Positions 6,439 through 29,646 of a DNA stretch of 35,234 nt are shown here, piece by piece; the first letter of the stretch is position 1; each line of letters opens with the position of its first letter. The position numbers were made by a program, and so were the translations under genes. The stretch covers positions 1 through 35,234 of the IMG/VR virus record IMGVR_UViG_3300020045_016362, one strand, 5' to 3'. Below the pieces are notes generated by a model. The model was not told the origin of the DNA and made no database searches. It saw nothing but the letters and a program-made list of their open reading frames with translations. The DNA comes from a virus. Taxonomy: Duplodnaviria; Caudoviricetes.

Positions 6439-6517
6439 TATAATGTCTCCTTTTTTTATTTATTATTATATCTTTTTCATAAGAAAATTAAAAATATTTA
6501 AAATTATATAAAAATTG

Positions 6518-6790
6518 TGTACATCGATGTCCCGATTAAAACCGTTGTACGCTCAAACGCCGACGTGGTGGGCATTCAATGGCTCGGACAACGGGACAAC
6601 GATTAGATCAAAAACTATATGAGATAATATGTGTATACCATAGCTATATACTATATATATAATATAAATACTTTTTAAATAATTAATGTCCCTGATGTCC
6701 CATAGTGTTTAAGCCCACCACTACGGGCTTTCAGCGTACAACGATAGGGACATTGATTAGTGTTTTGTACAATGATTCTATTGTACATAT
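6518..6790. repeat. Origin-like element, copy 1 (G[G/T]ACA iterons in both orientations around an AT-rich core)
   Basis: Imperfect direct repeat of 19400-19673; about 11 GGGACA/TGTCCC/TGTACA-type motifs; AT-rich core at ~6625-6686. Confidence 0.75.
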
Positions 6791-7604: not shown

Positions 7605-7680
7605 TGGTGGAGAATAGCGGGATCAAACCGCTGACCTCCTGCGTGCAAAACAGGCGCTCTCTCAGCTGAGCTAATTCCCC
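7605..7680 (-). tRNA. tRNA-Ala(TGC) with variant A19/U56/U31 and an encoded CCACCA end (to 7602)
   Basis: GGGGAATTAGCTCAGCTGAGAGAGCGCCTGTTTTGCACGCAGGAGGTCAGCGGTTTGATCCCGCTATTCTCCACCA folds as a cloverleaf with G3-U70 and A73. Confidence 0.95.
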
Positions 7681-11281: not shown

Positions 11282-12256
11282 TTACGCTTTTGCTTTGATA
11301 GCAACGAATGGTGTTAACTCTGCGTCAACTAATCTTTCCCAGTTTGCTGCGTCTTGTAATTCTGCAAGAGTTGGAATTCCTGCGTCGTTAGCAACGTTTG
11401 CTCCAATGAAAGAGTATCCGTTTAAGTGAAGTAAATAAGCCATTCTATTTAATAGAGTTTCTTCACCTGCTCCATTTCCTGATAATGGATTTCTGAAAGT
11501 TTCTACAGGGTATTCTACTCCTGCTGGTGCGAATGTAAATGCGCCTGCTCTTAGTAAATACGCTGTATATACATCTGCTGCAAAAGGAACTTTATTAGAA
11601 ACAAAAACTCTTAAGTCATTGTAATATTCTAATTGAAGACCTGCTTCAGATGGAACTACTGAAAAAGAAGCTGCGTCTGCTTTTTTTAGAGCAGCTTTAT
11701 GTTTAGGGTGCATAACAACAGCAACGAAGGCGTCCATATTTTCACCTGCTAACGCTACTGCGTCAACAAAATCACCATATTTAATAGTAGCTGCTGATAC
11801 GATTACTGAGTCAGAAGCTTCGTCTGCGATATTAGCTGCTAAAGCGCCGTTTAATTGAGCAATTGCTCTATTAAAAATGTCTTTATTCCAGAATCTACCT
11901 ACAAGCGCTTGAGCTGCTGCTAATGGATCTGTTCCAGAGCCTAGTTCTTTAACAATTGATTTTTCAGCATAAGCGTCTGTATAAAAACCTACAATTGCTT
12001 GTGCCTGTACTTTTGAAATCGTTTTTGGAACAATTGCGTTATCGCTATCGTCCATAATTGACGGCTCAGAATAAGAATTCTCGATTATAACCGGGATTTG
12101 GATCTTAGTAGCTGCGTCTTCTGATAAAACTTTTGCTGAAACTTTTGGATCTTGTGTGAAAACACCAGAATTAATCAATTCGATATTTTCTGCTGTGTTA
12201 AGTATATCTTCGCTAGTCCACAATTCTCTAACGAAAACGTCTGATAATTTAATCAT
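11282..12256 (-). CDS. Major capsid protein
   Basis: 324 aa, Ala-rich, higher GC; LSDVFV, LINSGV, VETFRNPLSGNGAGEETL, PTLAELQDAANWERL motifs of siphovirus coat proteins. Confidence 0.9.
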   Translation of the reverse strand: MIKLSDVFVRELWTSEDILNTAENIELINSGVFTQDPKVSAKVLSEDAATKIQIPVIIENSYSEPSIMDDSDNAIVPKTISKVQAQAIVGFYTDAYAEKSIVKELGSGTDPLAAAQALVGRFWNKDIFNRAIAQLNGALAANIADEASDSVIVSAATIKYGDFVDAVALAGENMDAFVAVVMHPKHKAALKKADAASFSVVPSEAGLQLEYYNDLRVFVSNKVPFAADVYTAYLLRAGAFTFAPAGVEYPVETFRNPLSGNGAGEETLLNRMAYLLHLNGYSFIGANVANDAGIPTLAELQDAANWERLVDAELTPFVAIKAKA

Positions 12257-12521
12257 TGTAAATCTCCATTTTTTATTTTTTTATTTTTATTCTTTTTAAT
12301 TTAATTAATTTAATTTTATTAATCCAAATAAAATTTTCTTTAAATCCATAAAGAAAAACTTTAATTAAAATAAATTATGAAAAAATTATATCATAAAAAA
12401 ATATTTAATAAAAATTTTGTTTTTGTGTGAAATATTGCTGATTATTTTTTATGTTATAAATACTATAGAATAGATATTATCTATGAAATATATTTTATTG
12501 ATTGCGTATATGATTGCGGAT

Positions 12522-12636
12522 GTAAAAGAAAAATGAGATATCACTAATAGCTAAGAAAATGAAGGAAGGATTTTTTTGTGCTATGTTTTGTAGTGATATC
12601 TCAAAGAAAGAAAAGAAGTAATTCTTTTGAATTACT
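12522..12636 (-). ncRNA. Candidate sRNA (~115 nt) with two hairpins and C/U-rich single-stranded regions
   Basis: Starts behind a perfect promoter; AGTAATTC-AAAA-GAATTACT hairpin; 13-bp TGAGATATCACTA/TAGTGATATCTCA stem with loop TCCTTCCTTCATTTTCTT; U-rich tail; no evident ORF. Confidence 0.7.
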
Positions 12637-12641
12637 CCATA

Positions 12642-12670
12642 ATTATAGCTTTTTTAATTTTGTATGTCAA
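12642..12670 (-). promoter_or_regulatory. Consensus sigma70 promoter
   Basis: TTGACA-N17-TATAAT on the minus strand. Confidence 0.85.
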
Positions 12671-12673
12671 ATT

Positions 12674-13420
12674 TTAGAAATCGAATTTAATTCCTTTTTC
12701 TAACGCTCTCTGTTTTAATGTATTAGAAATAGTAGAAGTAGCTCCACCACTAATTTTATTTTTTGTATTAGTAAAACCTGATCCGCTTTTAACATCTTTA
12801 GAAAATAAGAATGAAAAGTCTTCTGAAGATTGAATTTCATCTAATTTATCTTTAACAGTTTTAGCAACTCCATTTTTTCTATCAATAGAGCCATCCTGAT
12901 TTTTATAAATTAGCATTCCGTTTTCATCGAATGTTAAAGATTGTTTTAATTCTTGCATAATCAAAGAGTGCGCTTTAGCATTAACTGATTTAACACCTGA
13001 AGTATTTTTAAACAACTCTAATTCTAGTTTTTTCTCTAGAGCGTCTTTTTGTGCTGTTGTTAATTTTGTTTCATATTCTGTTTTAACGATAGAGAATTGA
13101 TTCTCTAAATTAGATATTTCTGTTTTTAATTGTTTTTCAATCTCTGATTGTTCTGTTTTAACTGAAGATTTAATACTAGATATTTTAGTGTTAATATTTT
13201 CTTCTGATAATTCTTCTGTATCATCGAATCCTAGTTTTTGTTTAAATGTTTTTGATACATTTTTATATTTTTCTCTCGATTGTGTAATATCCAAAACTTT
13301 TGTCTCTAAATTTTTTACTTCTAGTGATAGAGTATTATAATTAGATTCTAAATTTGCAACTACTGATAGAGCTCCAGCTGTATCGCCAGCTTGTAATAAC
13401 GCTTTTAATTGTGAAAACAT
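12674..13420 (-). CDS. Capsid scaffolding protein
   Basis: Coiled-coil body, C-terminal FLF...SGSG motif, upstream of capsid gene. Confidence 0.8.
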   Translation of the reverse strand: MFSQLKALLQAGDTAGALSVVANLESNYNTLSLEVKNLETKVLDITQSREKYKNVSKTFKQKLGFDDTEELSEENINTKISSIKSSVKTEQSEIEKQLKTEISNLENQFSIVKTEYETKLTTAQKDALEKKLELELFKNTSGVKSVNAKAHSLIMQELKQSLTFDENGMLIYKNQDGSIDRKNGVAKTVKDKLDEIQSSEDFSFLFSKDVKSGSGFTNTKNKISGGATSTISNTLKQRALEKGIKFDF

Positions 13421-13483: not shown

Positions 13484-13996
13484 TTATATAATTTTATCTA
13501 TTAAATTATATTCTAAAGATTGTTCTGCTGTTAAATATGTTTCTTTTTTAATTAATTTTCTTAATGTTTTGTCATCTATGTTAGATTTATTTTTAATACA
13601 TCTAAAGAGTTTATTCTCTCTCTCTGATATATCTGTTTTCAAAGAATCCTTAATAATCTGTCCGTTTCCTTCTATTGAAAATGTGGCTGGATGTATTAAT
13701 ACACGAGCATTATTAAACATATATCTCTCAAAACCAGCTTGTAAAATCATACCGCCCATCGAAAAAGCCATACCTGTATTAATAGTATAAATTTTATTTT
13801 CTTTTGTTTCATTGAAAAATTTAATAAAATCATATATAGCAAATCCAGAATCTATCTCTCCACCTACGCTATTAATAAATAAGTTTATGTCTTCTTCTGA
13901 CTCTTGATTAGCTTCTATAATTTCGCTTAGAATTCTTTCTGCAACGGCAACGTTTATTTCTTCAAATAGATATATTGATTTATTTTTAATATTCAT
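13484..13996 (-). CDS. clpP: ClpP-family serine protease
   Basis: INSVGG, GFAIYD, GMAFSMG (catalytic Ser), LIHP (His), ETYLTAEQSLEYNLID. Confidence 0.9.
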   Translation of the reverse strand: MNIKNKSIYLFEEINVAVAERILSEIIEANQESEEDINLFINSVGGEIDSGFAIYDFIKFFNETKENKIYTINTGMAFSMGGMILQAGFERYMFNNARVLIHPATFSIEGNGQIIKDSLKTDISERENKLFRCIKNKSNIDDKTLRKLIKKETYLTAEQSLEYNLIDKII

Positions 13997-14042
13997 TATT
14001 AAGTCCTTTTCTTTCTTTTTCTTTATTATATAAAAAAACAGT

Positions 14043-15014
14043 TTAAATTAAAAATTCTAACTCATCAATAGTAAAGAATTTACCTGTGTTTTCATTTATA
14101 AAATCTTTTATATCTAATTTATTATTTAAAAATAATTTAGCTCGTGTCTCACCCATTAATTTTATAGCTGTATTAGGATTTCTTCTCAAGAAACTATCAA
14201 AAGAAGTTTTACTATTCACCTGTTTCCCGCCTTCATCGCCTTTTGACGCTCTTGTATATGATAATTCGCTTGTTTCATCATATCTAACAATGATAGATCT
14301 ACAGTTAAAATGACGTGGTGGCCTGTCTTCTATTGAATCTCTAGTGTTATAACCGTCTTTTTTTAAATATATTTTTTTATCAAATAAAATACATTTAGAA
14401 GAAGTCCGACTATCTAACGTTGATAAAGATATAAAACCTTCAAAATTGCCAACTTCATTATCAATCTTCTCTCTCACGTCTTCTCTTAATTGTTTTGTTA
14501 TAGTTCGTGTGATAGTCTTTAATTTAGCATTAGAGCCTACTGATATAATATTATTTAATTCATTGATATAATTTTCTGGATTCTCTCCTGCTAATAAGTT
14601 CTGTGTTAAGAATGAATTTAATTGTCTAACTTGATTATTGTTTCTTATCTCTATCATATCTAATAATGTATATCCTAAAACCTGTTTTTCTGTGTTATAA
14701 ATTTCATCAAGGATATTTTTATCTAATTTAATATCTAAAAATGAAGATTCTTTTTTATAGAAAAAATTAATATGATTAACTATATCTTGATTAGCATTAA
14801 TATTAAACTCTGAATATATAACAGTTAATTCTTTTTTAATGTCTGTTAATAAAGCGTTAATTTGTCTTTTATTATAAGATTTAGTTTCATTAGATAATTT
14901 AGTTTTTAAATTATTAAATAATAATTCTAATTGTTCTACTGCTGTATTAACAGATACATATTTATATCGCTCAAAAAATAACTCTTGAGCTATAACTCTA
15001 TCAATTTCTTTCAT
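14043..15014 (-). CDS. Minor head protein (Mu gpF/SPP1 gp7-like)
   Basis: STLDSRTSSKC...D and PPRHFNCRS motifs. Confidence 0.88.
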   Translation of the reverse strand: MKEIDRVIAQELFFERYKYVSVNTAVEQLELLFNNLKTKLSNETKSYNKRQINALLTDIKKELTVIYSEFNINANQDIVNHINFFYKKESSFLDIKLDKNILDEIYNTEKQVLGYTLLDMIEIRNNNQVRQLNSFLTQNLLAGENPENYINELNNIISVGSNAKLKTITRTITKQLREDVREKIDNEVGNFEGFISLSTLDSRTSSKCILFDKKIYLKKDGYNTRDSIEDRPPRHFNCRSIIVRYDETSELSYTRASKGDEGGKQVNSKTSFDSFLRRNPNTAIKLMGETRAKLFLNNKLDIKDFINENTGKFFTIDELEFLI

Positions 15015-15035
15015 TTTATAGCTCCTAAGTTTTTT

Positions 15036-16379
15036 TTATAATTGATTTAATTCATCTTGTATTTTTTGTTTTTCTAAAGCAAAATCAAAATCTTCAAGAA
15101 TTTCACCTTTAATTAAAGAATTCCATAATGTCTCTATTGATATTAAATTTTCTCTTTTTAATGATATTAATTTATCTATTGTATTGCTATCAATTGCTAT
15201 ATCTGAGAAATCTTTAAATAATTCTAAATTAAAATTATAGTTGTCTCCTGCGAATTCTTCGCATATCAAAAGAATTTTGTTAAAAACTTCTTCTAAAGAT
15301 TTACTAATTTCAACTAAAAATAGACCTGAATTTTTGTCTGATATTTTCGCTTCTGTAGCTGTTCCAAAAGACTTTTGATTAAGAATATTTAAACTCATTT
15401 TATCCATAAAATCTTCTGTATTATGTATATAATTCTGCAATTTGTCAATAGAAGTACCTTGAATTTCTGATATCTCTACTCCGCCAGTTTGTTTATCATC
15501 AAATAAAAGGGCTGAGTTAGGTCCTATTTTAAGTTTATCTTTTGATCCACCATCTGTATCGTAGTTAAACAAAGATATAATAGGTGTTGCTGTCATATGT
15601 AAAATATAATCTAGATCTGAATTCTTATTGTAATGATGTAAATTAACATTAGCAAGATCATAAAACGGAATATCTGCATCTAAAAATCCTTTTTTAGACG
15701 AATATACAGCAAAAATAGGAATATATCCTAAATTATTTGTCCAGGAGTCAATCATATCGTAGTTTTTAGATTTTTGAAACACTTGTCCACCATTTTCATT
15801 TAATACAAAGAATAGTAAATCCTTTTTCATAGCTATTTCGCCATCTTCTGTATCTGTTTCTTGCACTATAACTATTTGAGATAGTTTTTTAATTCCATTT
15901 TCTATTTTAATTTTTTTTGAAAATACATTACCCCTATCAATTTGTTTAAGAATCGGATATACAGTATCATTTTTAGAGATAATGTTATTATCTGTTTTTA
16001 AAGAATCAACCCAGATATAAGTAAGCCCATCTTTTATCGCTTGTTTTGACGTCTTTTGCATAAAAATTTCTAAAGAAGAACCTTCACCATCAACGTTTTT
16101 AAAGAAGTTTTCATATTTTTCATCATAAGATAATTTTATACCTTTTCTAAATATAAGAGAGTTTAAATTGTTAATAGCTGGAGTTAAATAATTTTTAAAA
16201 ATACTATTCTTAAGTCTTTCTTTATATTTTTCTTCTGTTTCTAACGTGAATTTATATAAATATTTGCTGCCATTATTTTTAACTGATTTAGTTCCATCAT
16301 AAACATCTGAAATTGTCTGTAAATAGCTGATATTTTCTAAAAAATCATTATCTTTAAATTCTAGATTTTTCTTATTCAT
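15036..16379 (-). CDS. Portal protein (DUF4055-like)
   Basis: Follows TerL; YKERL...FKNY, NVDGEG, LGYIP, PFYDLANVNLHHY, TATEA motifs. Confidence 0.88.
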   Translation of the reverse strand: MNKKNLEFKDNDFLENISYLQTISDVYDGTKSVKNNGSKYLYKFTLETEEKYKERLKNSIFKNYLTPAINNLNSLIFRKGIKLSYDEKYENFFKNVDGEGSSLEIFMQKTSKQAIKDGLTYIWVDSLKTDNNIISKNDTVYPILKQIDRGNVFSKKIKIENGIKKLSQIVIVQETDTEDGEIAMKKDLLFFVLNENGGQVFQKSKNYDMIDSWTNNLGYIPIFAVYSSKKGFLDADIPFYDLANVNLHHYNKNSDLDYILHMTATPIISLFNYDTDGGSKDKLKIGPNSALLFDDKQTGGVEISEIQGTSIDKLQNYIHNTEDFMDKMSLNILNQKSFGTATEAKISDKNSGLFLVEISKSLEEVFNKILLICEEFAGDNYNFNLELFKDFSDIAIDSNTIDKLISLKRENLISIETLWNSLIKGEILEDFDFALEKQKIQDELNQL

Positions 16380-16451
16380 TTTTTTATCTCCATTTTTTAT
16401 ATTATTTGTTATTATATCAATTTTTATTATTTTTTTAAAATTCCATTTTGA

Positions 16452-17750
16452 TTACATAGGAGAATCTATTTTATTTTTAAAATTCTCTCGTCTAATAGGA
16501 AATCTAAAAAATACTAAATAACCTAATGCATCTAACATATGATCATTATTATGTTTTTTGTCCGGTTCTCCAGCATCGTTATATATCTGTTGCTCTAGAT
16601 TCTCTGTTAATGTTTTGCATATATCGCAATTAATAAAGAGTCTCTTTTCATTTTTCATATTTAAAAACATCGCTTGCACTGATAAAATTCTATCTTTAAC
16701 AAGTGGGTTTTTTGCTCCAACTTTTACTATAAAACCTGCATCTTTTAATAGTTTTATATCTGACGTTGACGCATTAACGCTTTTTCTAGCGTTTCCTGCC
16801 GCATCTGGATATACATAGATATTAAATCCTTCGAATCTCTTTTTTATTCGTGAGATCATATCTGGAGTGTCTTTAGCACCGAATATTTCGTCTATTACAA
16901 ATAATTTATTATTATGTATAATAGATATAACAGCACTCATTTTTCCGACGTTAAAATCCATCCCTATATGAAGATCTTTGTTGTTTTTAAATTCTTCTGA
17001 ATTAATATTTAATGATGTATCGTGTTCGTCTCTATTGAAATTTGTATAAACCTGTGAAGAATTAAGATTAACAAATTCTCCATTCAAATACGCTTCGATA
17101 AGATTTGCTGGATATTGACTCCTTAAATCATTAACATAAGAAGAAGGCAAAAATATATTATTTTCTGTTCTACCACGAATTATTTTAAATTTTTCTGAAG
17201 GCTCTTTACCCCATTTTTCATAAACAAACTTGAATCCTTCTGGTGTAGTAGTAATACTGCACGTATTAAGTTCGTCATTATCTTTCTTTAATCTGTTCCT
17301 AGCAATAATTTTTTCGAATGCTTCTTTAGCGTGATCTTTTTTTAAAGTGTCCAACTCATCTATTCCACAGTCTGCGTGCTCATAACCTATAATTTTATCT
17401 GAGTTCTCTAAAGATCTGAAAATAATCAATCCTACACCATAGATATTAAGTATTTTATCTGACTTATTCAATGAATATTTTATTTTCATTTTTGTTAATA
17501 TTTCTTCAAATCTAGGAAAAAGAATCATTTTAATTAGATCATAGGTAGGCTCATATAAACCATATATATATGTTTTTCCTTTCTTTTTAAAAGACGGTCC
17601 ATACTTATACATATAATGTAAACATCTAAATATAGCTGATTCTGTTTTACCACAACCGAAACCACCTATGAGAGCTGGGTATTGAGCATCGCAATTAACA
17701 AATTTATGTTGATGATCTAATAAATTAATTTTTATTTTAATTTTATTCAT
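16452..17750 (-). CDS. terL: Terminase large subunit
   Basis: Walker A GGFGCGKT, Walker B GIDE, TTTPEG coupling motif, nuclease GMDFN and DHMLDALGY. Confidence 0.95.
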   Translation of the reverse strand: MNKIKIKINLLDHQHKFVNCDAQYPALIGGFGCGKTESAIFRCLHYMYKYGPSFKKKGKTYIYGLYEPTYDLIKMILFPRFEEILTKMKIKYSLNKSDKILNIYGVGLIIFRSLENSDKIIGYEHADCGIDELDTLKKDHAKEAFEKIIARNRLKKDNDELNTCSITTTPEGFKFVYEKWGKEPSEKFKIIRGRTENNIFLPSSYVNDLRSQYPANLIEAYLNGEFVNLNSSQVYTNFNRDEHDTSLNINSEEFKNNKDLHIGMDFNVGKMSAVISIIHNNKLFVIDEIFGAKDTPDMISRIKKRFEGFNIYVYPDAAGNARKSVNASTSDIKLLKDAGFIVKVGAKNPLVKDRILSVQAMFLNMKNEKRLFINCDICKTLTENLEQQIYNDAGEPDKKHNNDHMLDALGYLVFFRFPIRRENFKNKIDSPM

Positions 17751-19329: not shown

Positions 19330-19399
19330 TAGTTTTCTCCTGTTTTTTATTTTTATTATATCTTTTTTGCTTTTTTTTAACAATTTTTGAAATATCTTA

Positions 19400-19673
19400 T
19401 GTACATCGATGTCCCGATAAAAACCGTTGTACACTCAAACGCCGACTGTATCGATGTTTTGAAGCCCGGACAACGGGACAACGATTAGATGAAAGACTTT
19501 ATGAGATAATATGTGTATACCACCATAGCTATACTATATATAATATATAAATACTTTTTAAATAATTGTTGTCCCTGATGTCCCATAGTGTTTAAGCCCT
19601 AAAGTAGGCACTTAGAGCGTACAACGATAGGGACATTGATTAGTGTTTTGTACATTGATTCTATTGTCCATAT
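19400..19673. repeat. Origin-like element, copy 2
   Basis: Imperfect direct repeat of 6518-6790; iterons conserved, spacers diverged. Confidence 0.75.
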
Positions 19674-20474: not shown

Positions 20475-20687
20475 ATGAAAATACAAATAATAGAAAATAA
20501 ATTAAATAATCTAGATGTTGATTATAAATCATTAAGAAATTTGGCGTCATTATTTCTAGAAGATTTAAAAAACATAGATTCATTTGAATTTAGAGTTGGA
20601 AAAAGAGAAACGAAAAAAACTATTAGATCTCATTTAGGTTTTTTAAAAAATGGAGAAATAGTTAAAATATTTGTTGAAAATATATAG
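20475..20687 (+). CDS. Hypothetical protein
   Basis: AAGGAG RBS and upstream TATAAT. Confidence 0.7.
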   Translation: MKIQIIENKLNNLDVDYKSLRNLASLFLEDLKNIDSFEFRVGKRETKKTIRSHLGFLKNGEIVKIFVENI

Positions 20688-20690
20688 TTT

Positions 20691-20804
20691 TTATTCGTAT
20701 TTTTGACGCAAAAGTTAAAAATTACTGTATAATATGTTATGTTTTAGGATTTAGAGTCCTATAACATATAAAGAAAAGAAAAAAAATACATAGGAAGGTA
20801 TTCA
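20691..20804 (+). promoter_or_regulatory. Early cassette copy 1 (lacks hairpin 2)
   Basis: TTATTCGT...TTGA-TATAAT, hairpin TATGTTTTAGGA/TCCTATAACATA, GGAAGGTA RBS. Confidence 0.8.
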
Positions 20805-21020
20805 ATGAAAAATTTAGATACAGTTTTAGAGAAACTTAAAAACTCTATTATATACATTATTAATAGTGATAGCGTTATATCTGCTGAGCATAGAGATAAT
20901 GTTGTTCTTGTTAAACAAACAAACAAAGAGACAGGTGAGAAATCTAATACATTAATTAAATTTGATTTAATTAGTTCTTTTCTAGAAAAAAATATAACTA
21001 ATTCTAGAATTTATTCATAA
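20805..21020 (+). CDS. Hypothetical protein
   Basis: Cassette RBS directly upstream. Confidence 0.75.
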   Translation: MKNLDTVLEKLKNSIIYIINSDSVISAEHRDNVVLVKQTNKETGEKSNTLIKFDLISSFLEKNITNSRIYS

Positions 21021-21041
21021 AAAAAACAGGGAAGGTAAAAA

Positions 21042-21356
21042 ATGAAAAAAGAATGTGGAAGAATAGCGCTTTTGAGCGATGTTGTAGAAAAAACAGTTTT
21101 AAATTATAATAATTATTTATTAGTAGATACATTTTCTAATACTATAATTACAGTTAAATTTAATCAATATTTTAATGTTGTTATTAAACAAATTAATAAT
21201 AGAAATTCAATAGAGCATTCATTTAATAGAGATGAATTAAATAATTATCTATTAAACTATCTATCTAAATATAGTCTAACTATTTTAAGAAAGTTTTTTA
21301 TCGTTGATCTAGAAAATAAAAATAAATTATCATTGATTGATAAGAAGGAGCTTTAA
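21042..21356 (+). CDS. Hypothetical protein
   Basis: GGAAGGTA RBS; weak similarity to 20805..21020. Confidence 0.75.
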   Translation: MKKECGRIALLSDVVEKTVLNYNNYLLVDTFSNTIITVKFNQYFNVVIKQINNRNSIEHSFNRDELNNYLLNYLSKYSLTILRKFFIVDLENKNKLSLIDKKEL

Positions 21357-21357
21357 A

Positions 21358-21513
21358 ATGTTAGAATATATTACACTATATGATGTTGTTTTATGTTTTT
21401 TTATGTATTGTTTATTTACATTAGTTCTTTTTGTTATTGATATAAAAAACAAAAATGATATTAACTATTTTAAAAATAGTAAATTAGATTTTAGTGTATC
21501 TAACAATGAGTAA
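21358..21513 (+). CDS. Small membrane protein, 51 aa (not in ORF track)
   Basis: AAGGAG RBS; MLEYITLYDVVLCFFMYCLFTLVLFVIDIKNK...; fills the gap and its stop overlaps the next ATG. Confidence 0.7.
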   Translation: MLEYITLYDVVLCFFMYCLFTLVLFVIDIKNKNDINYFKNSKLDFSVSNNE

Positions 21514-21793
21514 AAAATACTGTTCTTGTATACCTGACGTTATATTTAATATAGATATATCTGAAGCCTGCAAATTGCACGATAATATCTGTGGAGAAAA
21601 AGGTCCTTTAAATCCTTTTTCTTCTGTTATTCCGTTTTATAACTCTTTAATATCATTGAGAATTAATAAAATTCTTGTTATTATGATAGTTTTTGGCGGA
21701 ACTTTTGGATGTTTATTAAAATATCCTTATTTATTATATAAAAAAATTATCTGGAGAAAAGAAAATGGAAGAGAAAAAAATATACAATATTAA
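21506..21793 (+). CDS. Small protein with phospholipase A2-like CxxHD motif and C-terminal TM segment
   Basis: YCSCIPD...EACKLHDNIC; ATG at 21506 coupled to the upstream stop. Confidence 0.55.
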   Translation: MSKKYCSCIPDVIFNIDISEACKLHDNICGEKGPLNPFSSVIPFYNSLISLRINKILVIMIVFGGTFGCLLKYPYLLYKKIIWRKENGREKNIQY

Positions 21794-22136
21794 TTTAAAT
21801 ACTGTTAAAGAAGTAAAGAAAATAAAAAATATTGAGCATTTCGAATTTATGTGTTATTTATGTGATGAATGTATGTCGTGTAGAAATGATGCTCATTTAA
21901 ATATAGATAATTTATATAAATATATTACATATAATGATGATAGTAATATTAGTAAATTAATGTCATTATATAAAACTAAGAAATTAGAAAAATTAGTAGA
22001 AGATTTAATTAATGTTAAATATGAAAATTCTGTTTCTCCTGTTTTTTTAGTTGAGTTATTTTTTGAATTAGAATTAGAACATAAATTACAATTTGATCAG
22101 ATGATTAAATTATTGAAAAGATATTTAAAATTTTAA
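21765..22136 (+). CDS. Hypothetical protein with CxxCxxCxxC motif
   Basis: GGAG RBS; CYLCDECMSC. Confidence 0.7.
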   Translation: MEEKKIYNINLNTVKEVKKIKNIEHFEFMCYLCDECMSCRNDAHLNIDNLYKYITYNDDSNISKLMSLYKTKKLEKLVEDLINVKYENSVSPVFLVELFFELELEHKLQFDQMIKLLKRYLKF

Positions 22137-22204
22137 CAATAATCTAACTTTTTTCTAATTTGACTCCTATAACATCATATAAATAAAATTTAATAGGGGT
22201 CAAT

Positions 22205-22645
22205 ATGAAAAAAAGATTACTACTAGTGAATCAATTTAAGAAAATTATAAATACTGATTATGAATCAGATTTAAAAATTTTTAGCAAAACAGCGTTTAAA
22301 ATTATATGTGATGAAGATTATTTTTTAGCAGTTTCAAAATATGAAAATAAATACATTATAAAAAAACATAATCTAATTAATCTAGATTATATAATTTATA
22401 ATAAATTTATAATTATTAATAGATCTGTTTTAGTTAATAATGAGTTGATAAATAAAGAAAAATTATCTTTATTTTATTTTGAAAATATGAAAGAAGAAAT
22501 TAAAGATATTTTATCAATTGATGAAACTATATTTAATTCTTTTATGATAGATGAATTTAACAAAATTCTTTATGTAAAAAATAGTACTAATAGAAAGAAT
22601 TTATTATCAATATTCAATTTATTATTAAATTATTTAAAAATATAG
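22205..22645 (+). CDS. Hypothetical protein
   Basis: 146-aa ORF with AGGGG RBS. Confidence 0.7.
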   Translation: MKKRLLLVNQFKKIINTDYESDLKIFSKTAFKIICDEDYFLAVSKYENKYIIKKHNLINLDYIIYNKFIIINRSVLVNNELINKEKLSLFYFENMKEEIKDILSIDETIFNSFMIDEFNKILYVKNSTNRKNLLSIFNLLLNYLKI

Positions 22646-22660
22646 CCAGTTTTTGGCTAT
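22642..22660 (+). terminator. Possible terminator hairpin
   Basis: ATAGCCA-GTTTT-TGGCTAT at the stop codon; weak U-tract. Confidence 0.5.
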
Positions 22661-22701
22661 CTTTATAATAAAATGTATTTTTTTTATAAAAAATGCAATT
22701 A

Positions 22702-22851
22702 TTATTCGTGTTTTTGAGATTATTTTTAAAAATTACGGTATAATATGTTATGTTTTAAGAAAATGGGTCTTATAACATAGAAAGAAAAGTTTTTCTCGAA
22801 AGAGATTTAATGAATAAAAGAAATAAAAAAACCGACAGGAAGGTAAAAACA
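22702..22851 (+). promoter_or_regulatory. Early cassette copy 2
   Basis: Promoter, hairpin 1, TCTC-GAAA-GAGA hairpin, GGAAGGTA. Confidence 0.85.
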
Positions 22852-23058
22852 ATGAAAACTCAAAACTTAATTAATGTATTAACATTTAATTTTAAAAACT
22901 CTAAATCAATATCTAAAGAAGAAATTCAAAATATGATTAATAACTGTAAAAACATAGAAATGTTAGAAGCGTTTTATTTAGATGCACTAGAAACTGGAAA
23001 AAACTTTACTGTAGCTAGTTTTAAATCTATTATTAAAAGAATTAATGAAATTAATTAA
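22852..23058 (+). CDS. Hypothetical protein, 68 aa (start revised); paralog of the N-terminus of 23211..23714
   Basis: ATG follows the cassette RBS; shared LIN...FKNSK.I..EEI...FTV.SF motif. Confidence 0.8.
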   Translation: MKTQNLINVLTFNFKNSKSISKEEIQNMINNCKNIEMLEAFYLDALETGKNFTVASFKSIIKRINEIN

Positions 23059-23061
23059 TTC

Positions 23062-23210
23062 TTATTCGTGTTTTTGATAATAATTTTAAAAATTTAGATA
23101 TAATATGGTATGTTTTAAGAAAATGGTTCTTATAACATACCAGTTAAAAGTTTTTCTCGAAAGAGATTCAATGAAGAAGAAAAGAAAAAATTACGGGAAG
23201 GTAAAAAATA
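23062..23210 (+). promoter_or_regulatory. Early cassette copy 3
   Basis: TGGTATGTTTTAAGA/TCTTATAACATACCA, TCTC-GAAA-GAGA, GGAAGGTA. Confidence 0.85.
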
Positions 23211-23714
23211 ATGAAAACTACAACTAGAGCTTATTTAATTAATATGTTTGCAGAATATTTTAAAAATTCTAAAAATATAACTAGAGAAGAAATTTATGAA
23301 TCAGTAAAGGAATGCGATCCAGAAATTTTACACGAGTATTTTAAATTTAGAAAAACTACAAGATTTACAGTTTCAAGTTTTAGAGCAATGATTAAAAATG
23401 TTAAAATTCATATGAAAATTATTAACAAAATTAACGATAAAGAAGTTAAACAAAACATAGTACATTTTGAAAAAATTACAGATGAAGAAGAAAACTTATG
23501 TTATATTTTAACAGAAATTAATGATTATACAGATGAAGAATCTTTTTTAGATGATAATACAATTAGTCAATTAAAATATAAAAAAGATGAAACATTTGAT
23601 TATTTATTTTATAATACAGAAGAAGAAATTAGAGAAATATTAACAAAAAATAATTATGTTAATATTGATATTGATACAATTTCTTATAGATCACTAAGAA
23701 TCAGGGGGCTTTAA
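23211..23714 (+). CDS. Hypothetical protein
   Basis: Cassette RBS; acidic C-terminal half. Confidence 0.8.
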   Translation: MKTTTRAYLINMFAEYFKNSKNITREEIYESVKECDPEILHEYFKFRKTTRFTVSSFRAMIKNVKIHMKIINKINDKEVKQNIVHFEKITDEEENLCYILTEINDYTDEESFLDDNTISQLKYKKDETFDYLFYNTEEEIREILTKNNYVNIDIDTISYRSLRIRGL

Positions 23715-23932
23715 TGTTAAATAGAAAAAATTTATTAGAACAATTTAATATCTATGATATATTAATTAGTAATAAAAGTTATAATGCAAGCGATGCAGAT
23801 TTTTATTATCATATATTATTAGATGAAAAATTATGTTTAGATTTAGAATTTGAATTTATCATAACAGAATTATCAAGAGATAATTTTCAAGATTTTTTAA
23901 CTATCTATAGATTAGCTAGAAAATTAAATTAG
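23714..23932 (+). CDS. Hypothetical protein
   Basis: TAATG coupling with upstream gene; AGGGGG RBS. Confidence 0.7.
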   Translation: MLNRKNLLEQFNIYDILISNKSYNASDADFYYHILLDEKLCLDLEFEFIITELSRDNFQDFLTIYRLARKLN

Positions 23933-24071
23933 TTATTAGTGTTTTTGATAATAATTTAAAAAATTACAGTATAATATGTTATAAAACTTAATTTAGGTCT
24001 TATAACATATTAAAGTTTTTCTAGAAATAGATTTAAAAAGAAAGAAAAAAATTACAGGAAGGTAAAAAACA
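23933..24071 (+). promoter_or_regulatory. Early cassette copy 4
   Basis: AATATGTTATAA/TTATAACATATT, TCTA-GAAA-TAGA, GGAAGGTA. Confidence 0.85.
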
Positions 24072-24356
24072 ATGAAACGATTAAAGAGTTTTTCAATAGA
24101 TGATTTTATTGATGATATGAATGTTATGATAGATGTTTTTTTTGAAACAGAATCAGCTGATTTTAGAAATAAAATGTATGATGATATTATGAAATTATGT
24201 ATAACAAAAAGAATTAATAAAAATACTCTAGCAGAATTATTTATTAATTATAAATTAAAAGATTTTGTTATTAAAGCTGTTTTAAGAATTTTAATGAGAC
24301 ATTATATAGAAATAGATAATGAAGAAATTGAAGATAAAAAATTAGGAGAATTTTAA
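24072..24356 (+). CDS. Hypothetical protein
   Basis: Cassette RBS. Confidence 0.78.
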   Translation: MKRLKSFSIDDFIDDMNVMIDVFFETESADFRNKMYDDIMKLCITKRINKNTLAELFINYKLKDFVIKAVLRILMRHYIEIDNEEIEDKKLGEF

Positions 24357-24565
24357 TGACACGATTAGATTTTTTTTATAAAATTAGTAATGAAATTACA
24401 TTTATATCAGCAGAAGAAAAAACAGAGATTAAAAAATATTTGTTAATAACAGATGATTTTTATGATATAGCAGATAAAATTCTTTATCTATTAGATAATG
24501 ATAATCTAAATTATAAAAATTTTATGAGTGTTATTCGTATTTTTGATAATAATTTTAAAAATTAG
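24356..24565 (+). CDS. Hypothetical protein
   Basis: AGGAG RBS, TAATG coupling; last codons are read from the next cassette. Confidence 0.7.
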   Translation: MTRLDFFYKISNEITFISAEEKTEIKKYLLITDDFYDIADKILYLLDNDNLNYKNFMSVIRIFDNNFKN

Positions 24566-24676
24566 TGTATAATATGTTATAAAACTTGAAATAGAGTCTT
24601 ATAACATATTAAAGGTTTTCGCTTAAAGCGATTCAATGAAGAAAAAAATAAAAAATTACAGGAAGGTAAAAAAACA
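24531..24676 (+). promoter_or_regulatory. Early cassette copy 5
   Basis: AATATGTTATAA/TTATAACATATT, TCGC-TTAAA-GCGA, GGAAGGTA. Confidence 0.85.
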
Positions 24677-24976
24677 ATGAAAGATTTAAAAGAAGTAAAA
24701 CAGGTTTTAATTAGATTCGAAGATGAATCTAAAACAGCTAAATTAATACAAGAATTTGTATTTTCTAATTATGTGTTTAAAACAGGAGAAAATGAGTATG
24801 ATTTTGATAAATATTTTAATATCATAAGTTCCATAAATAAAATGTTTTTAAACTATGATACAAAATATGCTAGAGATTCATATGCTCTAATAGAATTATT
24901 CTATTTTATTAATCTAAAACAAGAAGAAAAAGAAGAATTATTATCTTTTTTGAAAGATTATTTAATTTTTATCTAA
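24677..24976 (+). CDS. Hypothetical protein
   Basis: Cassette RBS. Confidence 0.78.
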   Translation: MKDLKEVKQVLIRFEDESKTAKLIQEFVFSNYVFKTGENEYDFDKYFNIISSINKMFLNYDTKYARDSYALIELFYFINLKQEEKEELLSFLKDYLIFI

Positions 24977-24978
24977 TC

Positions 24979-25130
24979 TTATTCGTGTTTTTGATAATAA
25001 TTTAAAAAATTTAGATATAATATGGTATGTTTTAAGAAATTGGATCTTATAACATACCAGTTAAAAGTTTTTCGCTTAAAGCGATTCAATGAAGAAAAGA
25101 AAAGAAAAAAACCATAGGAAGGTAAAAACA
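24979..25130 (+). promoter_or_regulatory. Early cassette copy 6
   Basis: TGGTATG...CATACCA, TCGC-TTAAA-GCGA, GGAAGGTA. Confidence 0.85.
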
Positions 25131-25736
25131 ATGAAAACTCAAGAAATAAATTTAATGTTAAAAAAACAATCTGAAACAATCATAGAATCTATGAATAATG
25201 TTTTAGAGAATGTTAATGTTGCTAGAAAAAATAGTGCTTCTTTTGAAATTATGGATTATGATTTTGATAATAAATATTTTATATTAGAAAATAATAATGA
25301 TATAACAGTAGAAAATGATATCGTAGATGCAGATGTTATAGAAAAAAATACTGAATTACATATTTATACATATTGTAATACATATTTTAATGAATCTTTC
25401 GATAATACAAGAGATTTTATTATCATAGATAACATAATCTATCCGTCAAAAATGGCTTTCTATAAAATTTTTAAGAAAGAATTAAAAAATGCAGCTCTAA
25501 TTACTGGTTTAGATTATAAATTCTTATGTAATGTATTTAATAAATACTCTAAAGAAGTAGTTTTATTTTGTTTAAATTTAAGAAGAAATAAAAAATATTC
25601 TTCATTTTTAAAACTATTATTAATATTAACTGATTATGAAACTAATTTATCTAAATTTGATTATAACGATGTTGCTACAGCGTATTATAAAAAAATGTTA
25701 AAAATAGAATTCAAAGAATTTTTAGAGTTAATCTAA
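25131..25736 (+). CDS. Hypothetical protein, 201 aa (start revised)
   Basis: ATG at 25131 follows the cassette RBS. Confidence 0.8.
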   Translation: MKTQEINLMLKKQSETIIESMNNVLENVNVARKNSASFEIMDYDFDNKYFILENNNDITVENDIVDADVIEKNTELHIYTYCNTYFNESFDNTRDFIIIDNIIYPSKMAFYKIFKKELKNAALITGLDYKFLCNVFNKYSKEVVLFCLNLRRNKKYSSFLKLLLILTDYETNLSKFDYNDVATAYYKKMLKIEFKEFLELI

Positions 25737-25930
25737 TGAAGACTTTATTTCTTTTAGCTATTATATCAGTGTTTTTTAGCACTGATATATTGGCAGAAAC
25801 TAAATCTAATAATCTATTTAATAAAAAAATAGATAAAAAGTCTTTAGATAGTAAATTATTATCTAAGGATTTTGATAAAAAATATGAATTATTATGTAAA
25901 TTTGAAAAATGTAGAGTAATTCATAAATAA
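25736..25930 (+). CDS. Small exported protein
   Basis: Signal peptide MKTLFLLAIISVFFSTDILA; TAATG coupling. Confidence 0.65.
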   Translation: MKTLFLLAIISVFFSTDILAETKSNNLFNKKIDKKSLDSKLLSKDFDKKYELLCKFEKCRVIHK

Positions 25931-25939
25931 TTTTAATTC

Positions 25940-26090
25940 TTATTCGTAGTTTTGAGATTATTTTTTAAAATTACAGTATAATATGTTATGTTTTAAGAAA
26001 TAGGTCTTATAACATAGAAATAAAAAGAGTTTTTCGCTTAAAGCGATTCAATGAAGAAAAGAAATAATAAAAAAACAGGAAGGTAAAAAA
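25940..26090 (+). promoter_or_regulatory. Early cassette copy 7
   Basis: TATGTTTTAAGA/TCTTATAACATA, TCGC-TTAAA-GCGA, GGAAGGTA. Confidence 0.85.
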
Positions 26091-26378
26091 ATGAAAACAA
26101 TTAACTTAAAAAACTTAAAAACACTAACTAAAAGATGTAATTCTTATCTAACAGAAGATTTTAATACATATTTATTCTCTGTTGTTGCAGTAAATTATGA
26201 TAAAAGAACTTGTGCAGTAGTAAAATCGATAGCAGATGGTTATTTATATTGTGATTTTTCAGATGAATTTTCTATAAAAATATTTTCAGATGAAATAAAA
26301 GAGATGACATTCGTAGAAGTAGAACAATTTTTTAATGTTTCTATTAATTTTAATGTAAATTTAGATAAATTATTATAA
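26091..26378 (+). CDS. Hypothetical protein
   Basis: Cassette RBS. Confidence 0.78.
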   Translation: MKTINLKNLKTLTKRCNSYLTEDFNTYLFSVVAVNYDKRTCAVVKSIADGYLYCDFSDEFSIKIFSDEIKEMTFVEVEQFFNVSINFNVNLDKLL

Positions 26379-26495
26379 AAATATAGTATAATATGTTATA
26401 AAACTCATTTTGGGTCTTATAACATATTAAAGAAAGTTTTTCTCGAAAGAGATTCAAAAAGAAAAGAAAAAAAACCCATAGGAAGGTAATTATCA
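26359..26495 (+). promoter_or_regulatory. Early cassette copy 8 (5' part degenerate)
   Basis: TATAAT at 26387, AATATGTTATAA/TTATAACATATT, TCTC-GAAA-GAGA, GGAAGGTA. Confidence 0.82.
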
Positions 26496-28169
26496 ATGAA
26501 AAATTTAACAGCAGAACAAATAGAAAAATTAAACTCAATTAAAGAAACTGGATTTTTAGATGAGCAAAAAACTAAAAAACTTGTATATGATTTAGTTAGA
26601 GAAAAATATATTTTATTTAATTATATTAATCAAAATGACTATGATACAGACATTTTAAACAAAACAGAATCAGCTATGAAAATAGCTAAATCTTTTGCTA
26701 GTTTTGTACCTTCAAACGCTGTATTAAATGATACTAAAACAGTTAAATATGTATTTAACCCACGAAATAACGATCGATCGTATAACAGGGGTGGGATTAC
26801 TCATATAAACTCTTTTGACATCAATAAGACACGATTAAACGACACTATGAGCGAATTTAATAAAGTGGATTATAGTTTTTTCTATGCAAATTTTAAGGCT
26901 TACAAATTATTACTATTAAATCTATTTTCAACTGAAGAGAGAGCAAATTATTTTATTAATTGGCTATCTACTATTGTTAATACAAGAAAAAAAGTTTTAA
27001 CTTCAATAATTATCAATGGTGTTGAAGGATCAGGAAAAGGCGTTTTAAAGGACACCATAAAAACTATTTTTGGAGATAAATATGTTTTAGAAGCTGGCAA
27101 CGAGATAGTTTCTGGCTCATTTAATGGTGAATTAGACGAGAAATTATTTGTATTTTTTGAAGAAATTATAGTTGATTATAACAAAAATAAACAAATAGCA
27201 GGAAAATTAAAACGATGGATTACTGACCCTGTTTTATCAATAAACGCTAAATATGGTGCTCAATTTTCAGTAGAAAACTTCTTTAACTGTATGTTTTTTA
27301 CTAATGAAGAAAACCCGATCGAAATTAAAACAGGAGATAGAAGATATTCTATTTTTAAATCTCAGAATAAACTATTAGATATCATAGATGAGTCCGAATT
27401 TGATTCTTATAATGATTTTTTTAATTGTTTAGAATCTGAGAAAATAGATTTTATTAATTTTCTTTTTAGATTAAAATATGACGAAAAAGCGACATTGAGA
27501 CCTTTCGATACAGAAGAAAAGGACGGTATCATTCAGAGCACTAGTACAAAAATAGAAATTCTTAATGGATTGTTAAATAAAGGACTTTATAATGAATTAG
27601 AGTATAAAATTGAAGAATTAATAGAGCTAAAAAAACAAATGAATCAGTTTTATCCTAGAAATTATAAAGAAATTTTAAAGGAAATTCAAGATGATATGAG
27701 TAAATCTAGAATTCAATTAAAACTATTGCCTTTTTTATATACTACTCTAGTAGACGAAAACGAAACATCAGTTATTAAAATCGGAGCTAAATTTAATAAC
27801 CTAGGAGAGAAAAAATCAGGTAGGGGAATCTCTTACAGAAAATTAAATAAACCTTATAATTCAGTTGATACATCAGCAGAATTTATTAATAATAAAAATG
27901 TTGTTATAGATGAAAAATTTAATGAAATTATCATAGAAAATTCAGATAATGTATTATCTAAAAATGACGTAAAAAGAGTAGAAGTTTTTTCTTTTAGTGA
28001 ATTTGTAAAATATGCTAAAGAAAACGAAATATCTTTTTTAGATATAGAAGAATTAGATAATGTTGTTTCTTATTATGATAAAACAACTAAAACTAATTAT
28101 TTTTTAAATAAAGAATTGATAAATAAAGATCAATTATCATCATTAAGTAATGTTTTATGCCCATTTTAA
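26496..28169 (+). CDS. SF3/D5-like replicative helicase (DUF5906, NrS-1 polymerase helicase-like)
   Basis: Walker A GVEGSGKG, Walker B VFFEE, motif C FFTNE, GDRRY; no evident primase domain. Confidence 0.88.
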   Translation: MKNLTAEQIEKLNSIKETGFLDEQKTKKLVYDLVREKYILFNYINQNDYDTDILNKTESAMKIAKSFASFVPSNAVLNDTKTVKYVFNPRNNDRSYNRGGITHINSFDINKTRLNDTMSEFNKVDYSFFYANFKAYKLLLLNLFSTEERANYFINWLSTIVNTRKKVLTSIIINGVEGSGKGVLKDTIKTIFGDKYVLEAGNEIVSGSFNGELDEKLFVFFEEIIVDYNKNKQIAGKLKRWITDPVLSINAKYGAQFSVENFFNCMFFTNEENPIEIKTGDRRYSIFKSQNKLLDIIDESEFDSYNDFFNCLESEKIDFINFLFRLKYDEKATLRPFDTEEKDGIIQSTSTKIEILNGLLNKGLYNELEYKIEELIELKKQMNQFYPRNYKEILKEIQDDMSKSRIQLKLLPFLYTTLVDENETSVIKIGAKFNNLGEKKSGRGISYRKLNKPYNSVDTSAEFINNKNVVIDEKFNEIIIENSDNVLSKNDVKRVEVFSFSEFVKYAKENEISFLDIEELDNVVSYYDKTTKTNYFLNKELINKDQLSSLSNVLCPF

Positions 28170-28252
28170 ACATTATTGTTAAAAATTAAGCTATAATAAA
28201 GAATAAAAGGGGAGTTATTCCCCTAAAAAAAAACCATAGGAAGGTAAATTAA
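28170..28252 (+). promoter_or_regulatory. tnpB promoter/leader
   Basis: TATAAT at 28192, AGGGGA/TCCCCT hairpin at 28208-28224, AAACCATAGGAAGGTAA RBS as in the early cassettes. Confidence 0.75.
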
Positions 28253-29530: not shown

Positions 29531-29646
29531 TGTTAAAGAAGAATATTATAGAATAGACTTCTTAAGATTTGATTTAGTCTTAACGTGTTGTTTAAAATAA
29601 ATCATCCAATACCACGTCCTAGAGCAAGATTCTAGGACCTTTTTTT
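29531..29646 (+). ncRNA. Candidate TnpB-associated structured ncRNA (~115 nt)
   Basis: Own promoter; successive stems AAGAAG/CTTCTT, TTAAGA/TCTTAA, ACGTG/CACGT; terminator GTCCTAGA/TCTAGGAC plus T7; no RBS. Confidence 0.7.

Follow-up and report, generated by a model that had tools for sequence, protein, structure and literature searches.

Predicted small RNA from the head module of a phage as a candidate antisense repressor of early and replication genes

A promoter-hairpin unit was found between the scaffold and major capsid genes of a phage genome of 35,234 nucleotides, which was analyzed over its full length and is referred to here as the window. Judged from sequence, we consider with moderate confidence that the unit specifies a trans-acting antisense RNA, which would likely repress translation of early and replication genes. 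The element is likely a variant of the phage RNA repressors and new as such. Early-gene shut-off is largely an open question in small phages that have no sigma factor, antiterminator or recognizable repressor. If the prediction is true, this shut-off would be explained simply by a trans-acting RNA that tracks a repeated early leader, repression would extend to an entire class of genes, the replicative helicase among them, and a compact, Hfq-free repression module would be available to Campylobacterota. To our knowledge, the phage RNA repressors known so far act on one locus.

The record represents a complete 35-kb phage with direct terminal repeats at its ends and a G+C content of 18-35% per kilobase. 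The minus strand encodes the structural genes, mostly with GGAG-type ribosome sites. The plus strand encodes small genes of unknown function, a D5/P4-type helicase (primase C-terminal family, 26496-28169), which matched a P4-family primase model weakly, and tnpB (NF040570, 28253-29479), which has no accompanying transposase. A tRNA-Ala(TGC) gene (7605-7680, minus strand), located directly 3' of a terminator-like hairpin, differed at 3 of 73 positions from 12 of the 119 bacterial loci compared, and the seven titled loci among those 12 were from Arcobacteraceae, Campylobacter or Helicobacter. One of the three changes from the Campylobacterota gene sits in the T-loop. The tRNA comparison bore out the Campylobacterota context assumed in the earlier note, and the host likely belongs to this phylum. 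No repressor or integrase family was found with Pfam (30 + 22 window proteins), PHROGs (27) or NCBIfam (18), and no antiterminator family among the window ORFs scanned with Pfam and PHROGs. An atlas search with a 201-aa early protein yielded no usable match. Near-identical DNA was present in contigs of wastewater runs; of the substitution rows for the strain contigs, 40 of 191 were covered.

The element lies on the minus strand, downstream of the scaffold gene (12674-13420, phrog_206) and upstream of the major capsid gene (11282-12256, PF20036). A sigma70-type consensus promoter, TTGACA-17-TATAAT (12642-12670), begins 4 nt past the scaffold stop codon. It agrees with the consensus at 12 of 12 positions, as had been reported, and is the only perfect one of two near-consensus matches in the whole window. 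The predicted small RNA of ~115 nt would span 12522-12636 (both ends deduced), with its +1 placed 6-7 nt past the -10 box. Hairpin 1 forms the predicted 5' end (12615-12638) and is followed by a U/C linker (12603-12618) complementary to A/G tracts of early and clpP-like leaders. Hairpin 2 (12534-12603), followed by a U-rich tail, has a 13-bp outer stem, a 5-bp inner stem and a 28-nt loop, and the loop contains the seed CCUUCCU (12563-12569), complementary to the early ribosome site AGGAAGG. The folded two-hairpin sequence that the earlier note placed in this gap was confirmed, with a folding energy of -30.1 kcal/mol (z -6.69) that was reached by 0 of 200 shuffles; z ranged from -6.7 to -7.5 across computations. 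The element had no Rfam match, the only gathering-score match of the window being the tRNA, and searches of L001, L225, L227 and L228 gave no Rfam match at E<=1. On the same strand, 3' of the predicted RNA, GCAAT recurs with a 12-base period (12501-12517). The base preceding both copies was altered in strain contigs, and the related phage L008 carries CCGCAA with the same 12-base period.

Hairpin 1 together with its U tract scored as an intrinsic terminator 36 nt past the scaffold stop. It is thus conceivable, if unlikely, that the unit is a leader resembling that of lambda pR' or a plain terminator block, in which hairpin 1 terminates the scaffold mRNA, the attenuated leader of a strong promoter is read through late into the capsid operon and the complementarity to early leaders is incidental. 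The late genes of lambda are controlled by pR', tR' and Q antitermination. In the window, too, late genes are preceded by a strong promoter and a terminator, U-rich tracts also follow hairpin 1 in relatives, and near-perfect promoters precede ordinary late genes there. However, the arrangement of one promoter with an antiterminator was not found in the window. The capsid gene has a separate extended -10 promoter, TGATATAAT (12385-12393, minus strand, ~128 nt 5' of the capsid start), and a capsid promoter is present even in L145, a relative without the element. In addition, TATAAT was located <=60 nt from the start in 14 of 31 late genes, which argues against a single late promoter. The own-phage complementarity of three relatives described below (z -4.3 to -6.9) is also left unexplained. 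A terminator or late-leader function can, in any case, be compatible with an antisense RNA.

The antisense prediction rests on the leaders of the early genes. The motif RGGAAGG occurred 13 times in the window, compared with 1.63 expected. Eleven of these occurrences were on the plus strand and comprised ten early ribosome sites (8 AGGAAGG and 2 GGGAAGG) and the complement of the small-RNA loop. AGGAAGG was nearly absent from late genes and from proxy host genes. The ten predicted target sites (plus strand, 20792-28244; at 20792, 21029, 22837, 23195, 24056, 24660, 25116, 26077, 26480 and 28238) lie mostly in repeated cassettes consisting of a promoter, a TATGTTAT/ATAACATA palindrome, a covarying hairpin, a purine tract and AGGAAGG. 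The reported match of the loop to the (A/G)GGAAGG sites of ten plus-strand genes was therefore confirmed, but since the leaders are copies of one cassette, they do not count as ten independent matches. Approximately nine such cassettes are repeated across 20659-28250 on the plus strand. In six early promoters, an operator-like TATGTTAT-N19/20-ATAACATA palindrome overlies the start site; because of this overlap, the proposal that the RNA acts in place of a protein repressor is unproven. The palindrome has a covarying form, TGGTATG/CATACCA, at 23106 and 25022, and the cassette hairpins also covary (TCTC-GAAA-GAGA, TCGC-TTAAA-GCGA and TCTA-GAAA-TAGA). Palindrome and hairpin are possibly an operator and an RNA signal, respectively.

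Pairing of the RNA within the window was assessed with shuffled controls. The loop scored -11.5 against 16 plus-strand starts compared with -7.4 against 32 minus-strand starts, and 2 of 500 base shuffles matched this strand preference. With dinucleotide shuffles, the score of the loop was matched by 6/200 for 11 cassette leaders and by 102/200 for 20 late leaders; for four foreign leader sets, the corresponding values were 75-188/200. The linker matches to early leaders that had been noted were present (11 nt at 20475 and 12 nt at 24072). However, a significant linker seed could not be substantiated, because the linker did not beat shuffles on early leaders (55/500). The whole 5' domain did not reach significance either, with 21/200 against the own leader set and 61/500 for the helicase. 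Pairing is supported by the loop, whose seed is 7 nt long, and not by the linker, and the window alone provides modest to moderate support for it. The best start-region partner of the linker was the late-strand clpP-like gene at 13996 (13 nt, -16.9). This gene (13484-13996, minus strand) lies between the minor head and scaffold genes, and its leader (13997-14030) was the best partner of the RNA 5' part in the window. Targets predicted in G565 and on contig L144 occupy the same scaffold-adjacent slot, which suggests that the clpP-like gene may belong to the regulated class. Relatives have different accessory genes in this slot, frequently encoded on the opposite strand.

Host AAGGA-type mRNAs had also been suggested as targets. 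The loop contains UCCUU twice, and the host phylum employs RNAs such as RepG and CJnc190 that repress in this manner, according to the part of the literature accessible to us (PMC8687705). As a proxy, 300 kb of one Arcobacteraceae genome (G001), which is not the true host, was scored, and AAGGA was present at 57 of its 209 starts. Nevertheless, the proxy starts averaged -5.5, 70 of the 209 were no better than shuffles (4/40), and GGAAGG was found at 1 of the 209. An energy of -10 kcal/mol was reached by 14/209 proxy starts compared with 9/11 phage cassette leaders. The suggestion of host mRNAs as main targets was not sustained by this comparison; we regard it as highly improbable that the RNA acts mainly on the host, and a few host targets are possible.

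Scans with capsid and terminase identified five close phages that span the scaffold-capsid gap; L142 and L225 among them are the same as G564 and G565, respectively. A promoter followed by hairpins occupied the gap in five of the six close phages (the window, L008, L141, L142 and L225). The promoter is located right after the scaffold stop and is perfect in L008, L141 and L225, whereas L142 has an extended -10 promoter. At all five loci a hairpin begins a few bases from the predicted +1, and in the relatives the first hairpin is followed by pyrimidine-rich loops and linkers. Folds of the element in the close phages had z values of -2.1 to -5.9. A second promoter was found 5' of the capsid gene in L141, L142, L225 and L145, with candidate sites in L008. 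The sixth phage, L145, lacks the element, and its gap contains the capsid promoter only. In the distant relatives L002, L005-L007, L009, L010 and L132-L134 the gaps were <100 nt and contained no such unit; L003 and L004 begin too late for the gap to be scored, and L137-L139 were left out. The five RNAs could not be aligned to one another (mean column identity 52%), and the alignment was too poor for a covariance model to be built. An exact-stem pattern search of viral contigs gave 0 matches, and scaffold and helicase as single queries retrieved no relatives. No match of the capsid profile to genome contigs was confirmed; the profile matched in 1 of 184 family genomes and 3 of 401 phylum genomes, all distant. 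The early promoters of G564 (13850-17230) and G565 (23655-26050) share AAAAGTCCC ~17 nt 5' of TATAGTA and are unlike the late promoters of the same phages.

Complementarity to own leaders was then compared across the five phages by scoring the RNA 5' domain of each phage against the early or opposite-strand leader sets of each. Own-phage complementarity was strong in G565 (0/200 shuffles), in L141 with contig L233 (0/200) and in L008 with contig L144 (1/200), with z values of -4.3 to -6.9. None of the 20 cross-phage combinations stood out, the best being 15/200. The leader sets included targets that had been added after scoring well (G565 315 and 26525, G564 19103, window 13996). The L141/L233 and L008/L144 checks used contigs that had not been seen when the idea was formed. 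For G564, complementarity to its own leaders was not significant (20/200 and 33/500; early set 39/60).

L141 and L233 are linked by shared repeats of 93-94% identity and a tetranucleotide r of 0.83, with no exact overlap. The L141 linker forms 15 bp with the helicase leader of L233, which ranked first of 28. The first loop covers the start AAAAGUUAUG; of all gene starts on both contigs, only five early ones of L233 have this sequence. The whole 5' domain of L141 gave a co-linear duplex of -35.8 kcal/mol, an energy that none of 500 shuffles reached. When 30 starts were ranked for this RNA, early cassette genes took the first four places. A leader of the L233 type is also present on L141 itself (-36.3), and the best single partner of 29 starts was a site internal to the portal gene (-36.9). 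L008 and L144 overlap by 119 identical bases. The best partner of the L008 RNA among 29 starts was the L144 opposite-strand gene 6193, paired over the ribosome site, and the fourth best was the opposite-strand gene 10342, paired via a motif that is single on that strand. An L008 helicase starting M-R-I was also considered; there was none among the 36 helicases listed, and the idea was dropped once the loop matched the L144 ribosome site. In G565, the top 2 of 46 starts were those of the helicase (-30.6; 1/500 shuffles) and of a 51-aa opposite-strand gene. CCUUCC was found in the window RNA only, among the five RNAs.

In three complete genomes, each RNA paired best with its own helicase leader. 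Because the helicase was noticed post hoc, all 21 shared gene families were scored. The helicase leader ranked first (Fisher p 0.0015, ~0.03 corrected), with the own RNA best in 3/3 rows and 3/3 columns, and the tnpB leader ranked second (p 0.09). The preference for the own over the two other helicase leaders was matched by shuffles in 1/400 (window), 26/400 (G564) and 9/400 (G565). Among the predicted targets, the helicase leader is the one best conserved across the phage group. When whole genomes were scanned for segments antisense to the helicase leader, the RNA ranked 4 of 2532 windows in L141/L233 and 6 of 3194 in G565, outranked in both cases by direct complements of leaders, and only 53 of 3520 in the window and 30 of 3376 in G564. 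Antisense control of early genes, as the earlier note had inferred it, thus gained support in relatives, whose RNAs vary in step with their early leaders, and had moderate support in the window, but it did not reach significance in G564.

The same complementarity might arise at the level of DNA, from a protein site shared with the early leaders or as the relic of an inverted cassette, with no RNA pairing involved. We consider this distinctly unlikely. The mismatches in the paired segments comprised 33 G-U and 48 A-C; with no wobble excess, they do not favor pairing between RNAs over a DNA site common to both. ATAACATA, the half-site of the early palindromes, is present at 12450-12457, and relatives often carry opposite-strand gene insertions near the scaffold gene. 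On the other hand, the matching segments lie in predicted loops and linkers just past a conserved promoter, where they cover start codons and ribosome sites, and they track the present-day leaders of each phage although the RNAs do not align. In L141 and G565, moreover, the ribosome-site part of an inverted copy is degraded and the flanks match.

A product of the opposite strand was given still less weight and appears very unlikely. It could be a cis-repressed small peptide, as in type I toxin-antitoxin systems of the AapA/IsoA style, or an RNA with a GGA loop that binds CsrA or sponges the small RNA. The plus strand has a ribosome site and GTG opening a 41-aa frame (12578-12703), frames led by ribosome sites lie opposite four of the five loci, and the plus strand folds at -33.6 kcal/mol with GGA in a loop. 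However, the frames range from 13 to at least 48 aa, are mutually unlike and are missing in G565, so that no conserved small toxin ORF was found. In strain contigs, indels of one base at 12590 and 12626 shift the window frame (one contig each, depth ~8). Furthermore, the conserved promoter faces the other way, and the opposite-strand ribosome site is the mirror image expected of any loop directed against ribosome sites.

For the preferred reading, an antisense RNA acting in trans, the following mechanism is proposed. A host sigma70-type polymerase would transcribe the RNA from the start of infection, and the small RNA would be kept stable by its 5' hairpin. The exposed loop would seed on a ribosome site or start codon, in the window with CCUUCCU against the unusual AGGAAGG site, and in relatives pairing would extend to a co-linear duplex of 35-45 nt. 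Translation of early, replication and accessory genes would be blocked through pairing of the RNA with the leader they have in common. In four of the five phages the ribosome site or start codon falls within the paired stretch, which makes repression likelier than activation, and the odd early ribosome site may confer specificity on the RNA. Since a host-type promoter should fire from entry, the RNA would build up and throttle the early and replication genes, with less helicase and other early protein being made as it accumulates, and would in this way time the early-to-late switch or restrain replication. A wider proposal is tentative, namely that an RNA repressor without a protein repressor runs the early-to-late switch or a carrier state and that the head-module RNA co-evolves with a standardized leader that precedes each of the early genes. 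Roles as a tRNA-Met anticodon decoy and as a Rho decoy were dropped, as no shared motif was found.

The C4 RNA of phage P1 is located in the operon it controls. In the sections of the sources available to us, C4 is described as a 77-nt antisense RNA that represses Ant synthesis (PMC8546580), and CI of P4 as pairing with seqA and seqC and so keeping the P4 replication genes silent (PMC4825925). Like these, the element would be a small structured RNA made by a phage that pairs in trans, with a loop or linker complementary to phage leaders (strong in three relatives, moderate in the window and not significant in G564). CI differs in that it arises by processing of the very leader under its control and acts by causing termination. 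The element was found neither within nor processed from a regulated operon and matched no curated RNA family; it has its own promoter in the head module, and its many predicted targets are 8-16 kb away on the other strand. CJnc190 of Campylobacter jejuni and RepG of Helicobacter pylori, from a phylum without Hfq, are described in the accessible text as pairing through a C/U-rich loop with a G-rich ribosome site (PMC8687705), and the window RNA likewise presents a C/U-rich single-stranded loop to a G-rich ribosome site. They are chromosomal with host targets, whereas the predicted targets of the window RNA are the phage's own, and CJnc190 is processed by RNase III and has an antisense partner. 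Homology was not indicated by Rfam, in which either RNA may lack a model. The element would therefore work like P1 C4, P4 CI and CJnc190 by analogy and be a member of none of these families.

Lambda 6S RNA (from pR'), StxS, PreS and SviR of PLE are likewise small RNAs encoded in a phage late region. As far as the partial texts show, 6S has host targets plus one in the early operon (10.1101/2024.10.31.621285), SviR, made by a phage satellite, acts in trans on multiple targets and represses the helper phage (10.1101/2022.04.08.487710), the named lambda RNAs are Hfq-dependent and mostly host-directed, and none of the four is described there as a match to a leader repeated ahead of its own phage's early genes. 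No published head-module RNA antisense to the phage's own early leaders was found in a search that covered subscription literature poorly. The 38 uncharacterized phage sRNAs in Table S1 of a review seen in part (PMC12197685) could bear on novelty; the comparison literature, in its accessible part, also includes PMC6733600.

Several further features were observed. The capsid leader of the window (12257-12393, minus strand) and those of L003, L004, L008, L142, L145 and L225 are ~125 nt long and contain TGGA/TGGAT motifs, often two, which we take to resemble CsrA sites. In the window, G564, G565 and L233, tnpB is located directly after the helicase or one gene after it and is possibly domesticated; a hairpin at ~29610-29635 may end a tnpB guide RNA. 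Two non-coding copies of ~275 nt, ~90% alike, are present at 6515-6790 and 19397-19673. They have a G+C content above that of the genome, long inverted arms and GGGACA/ACAACG motifs repeated on both strands, and they fold at -80 to -97 kcal/mol. No Rfam model matched the copies, which may represent a MITE, a large RNA or origins of replication used by the D5-type helicase. Repeats were also observed at contig ends in relatives.
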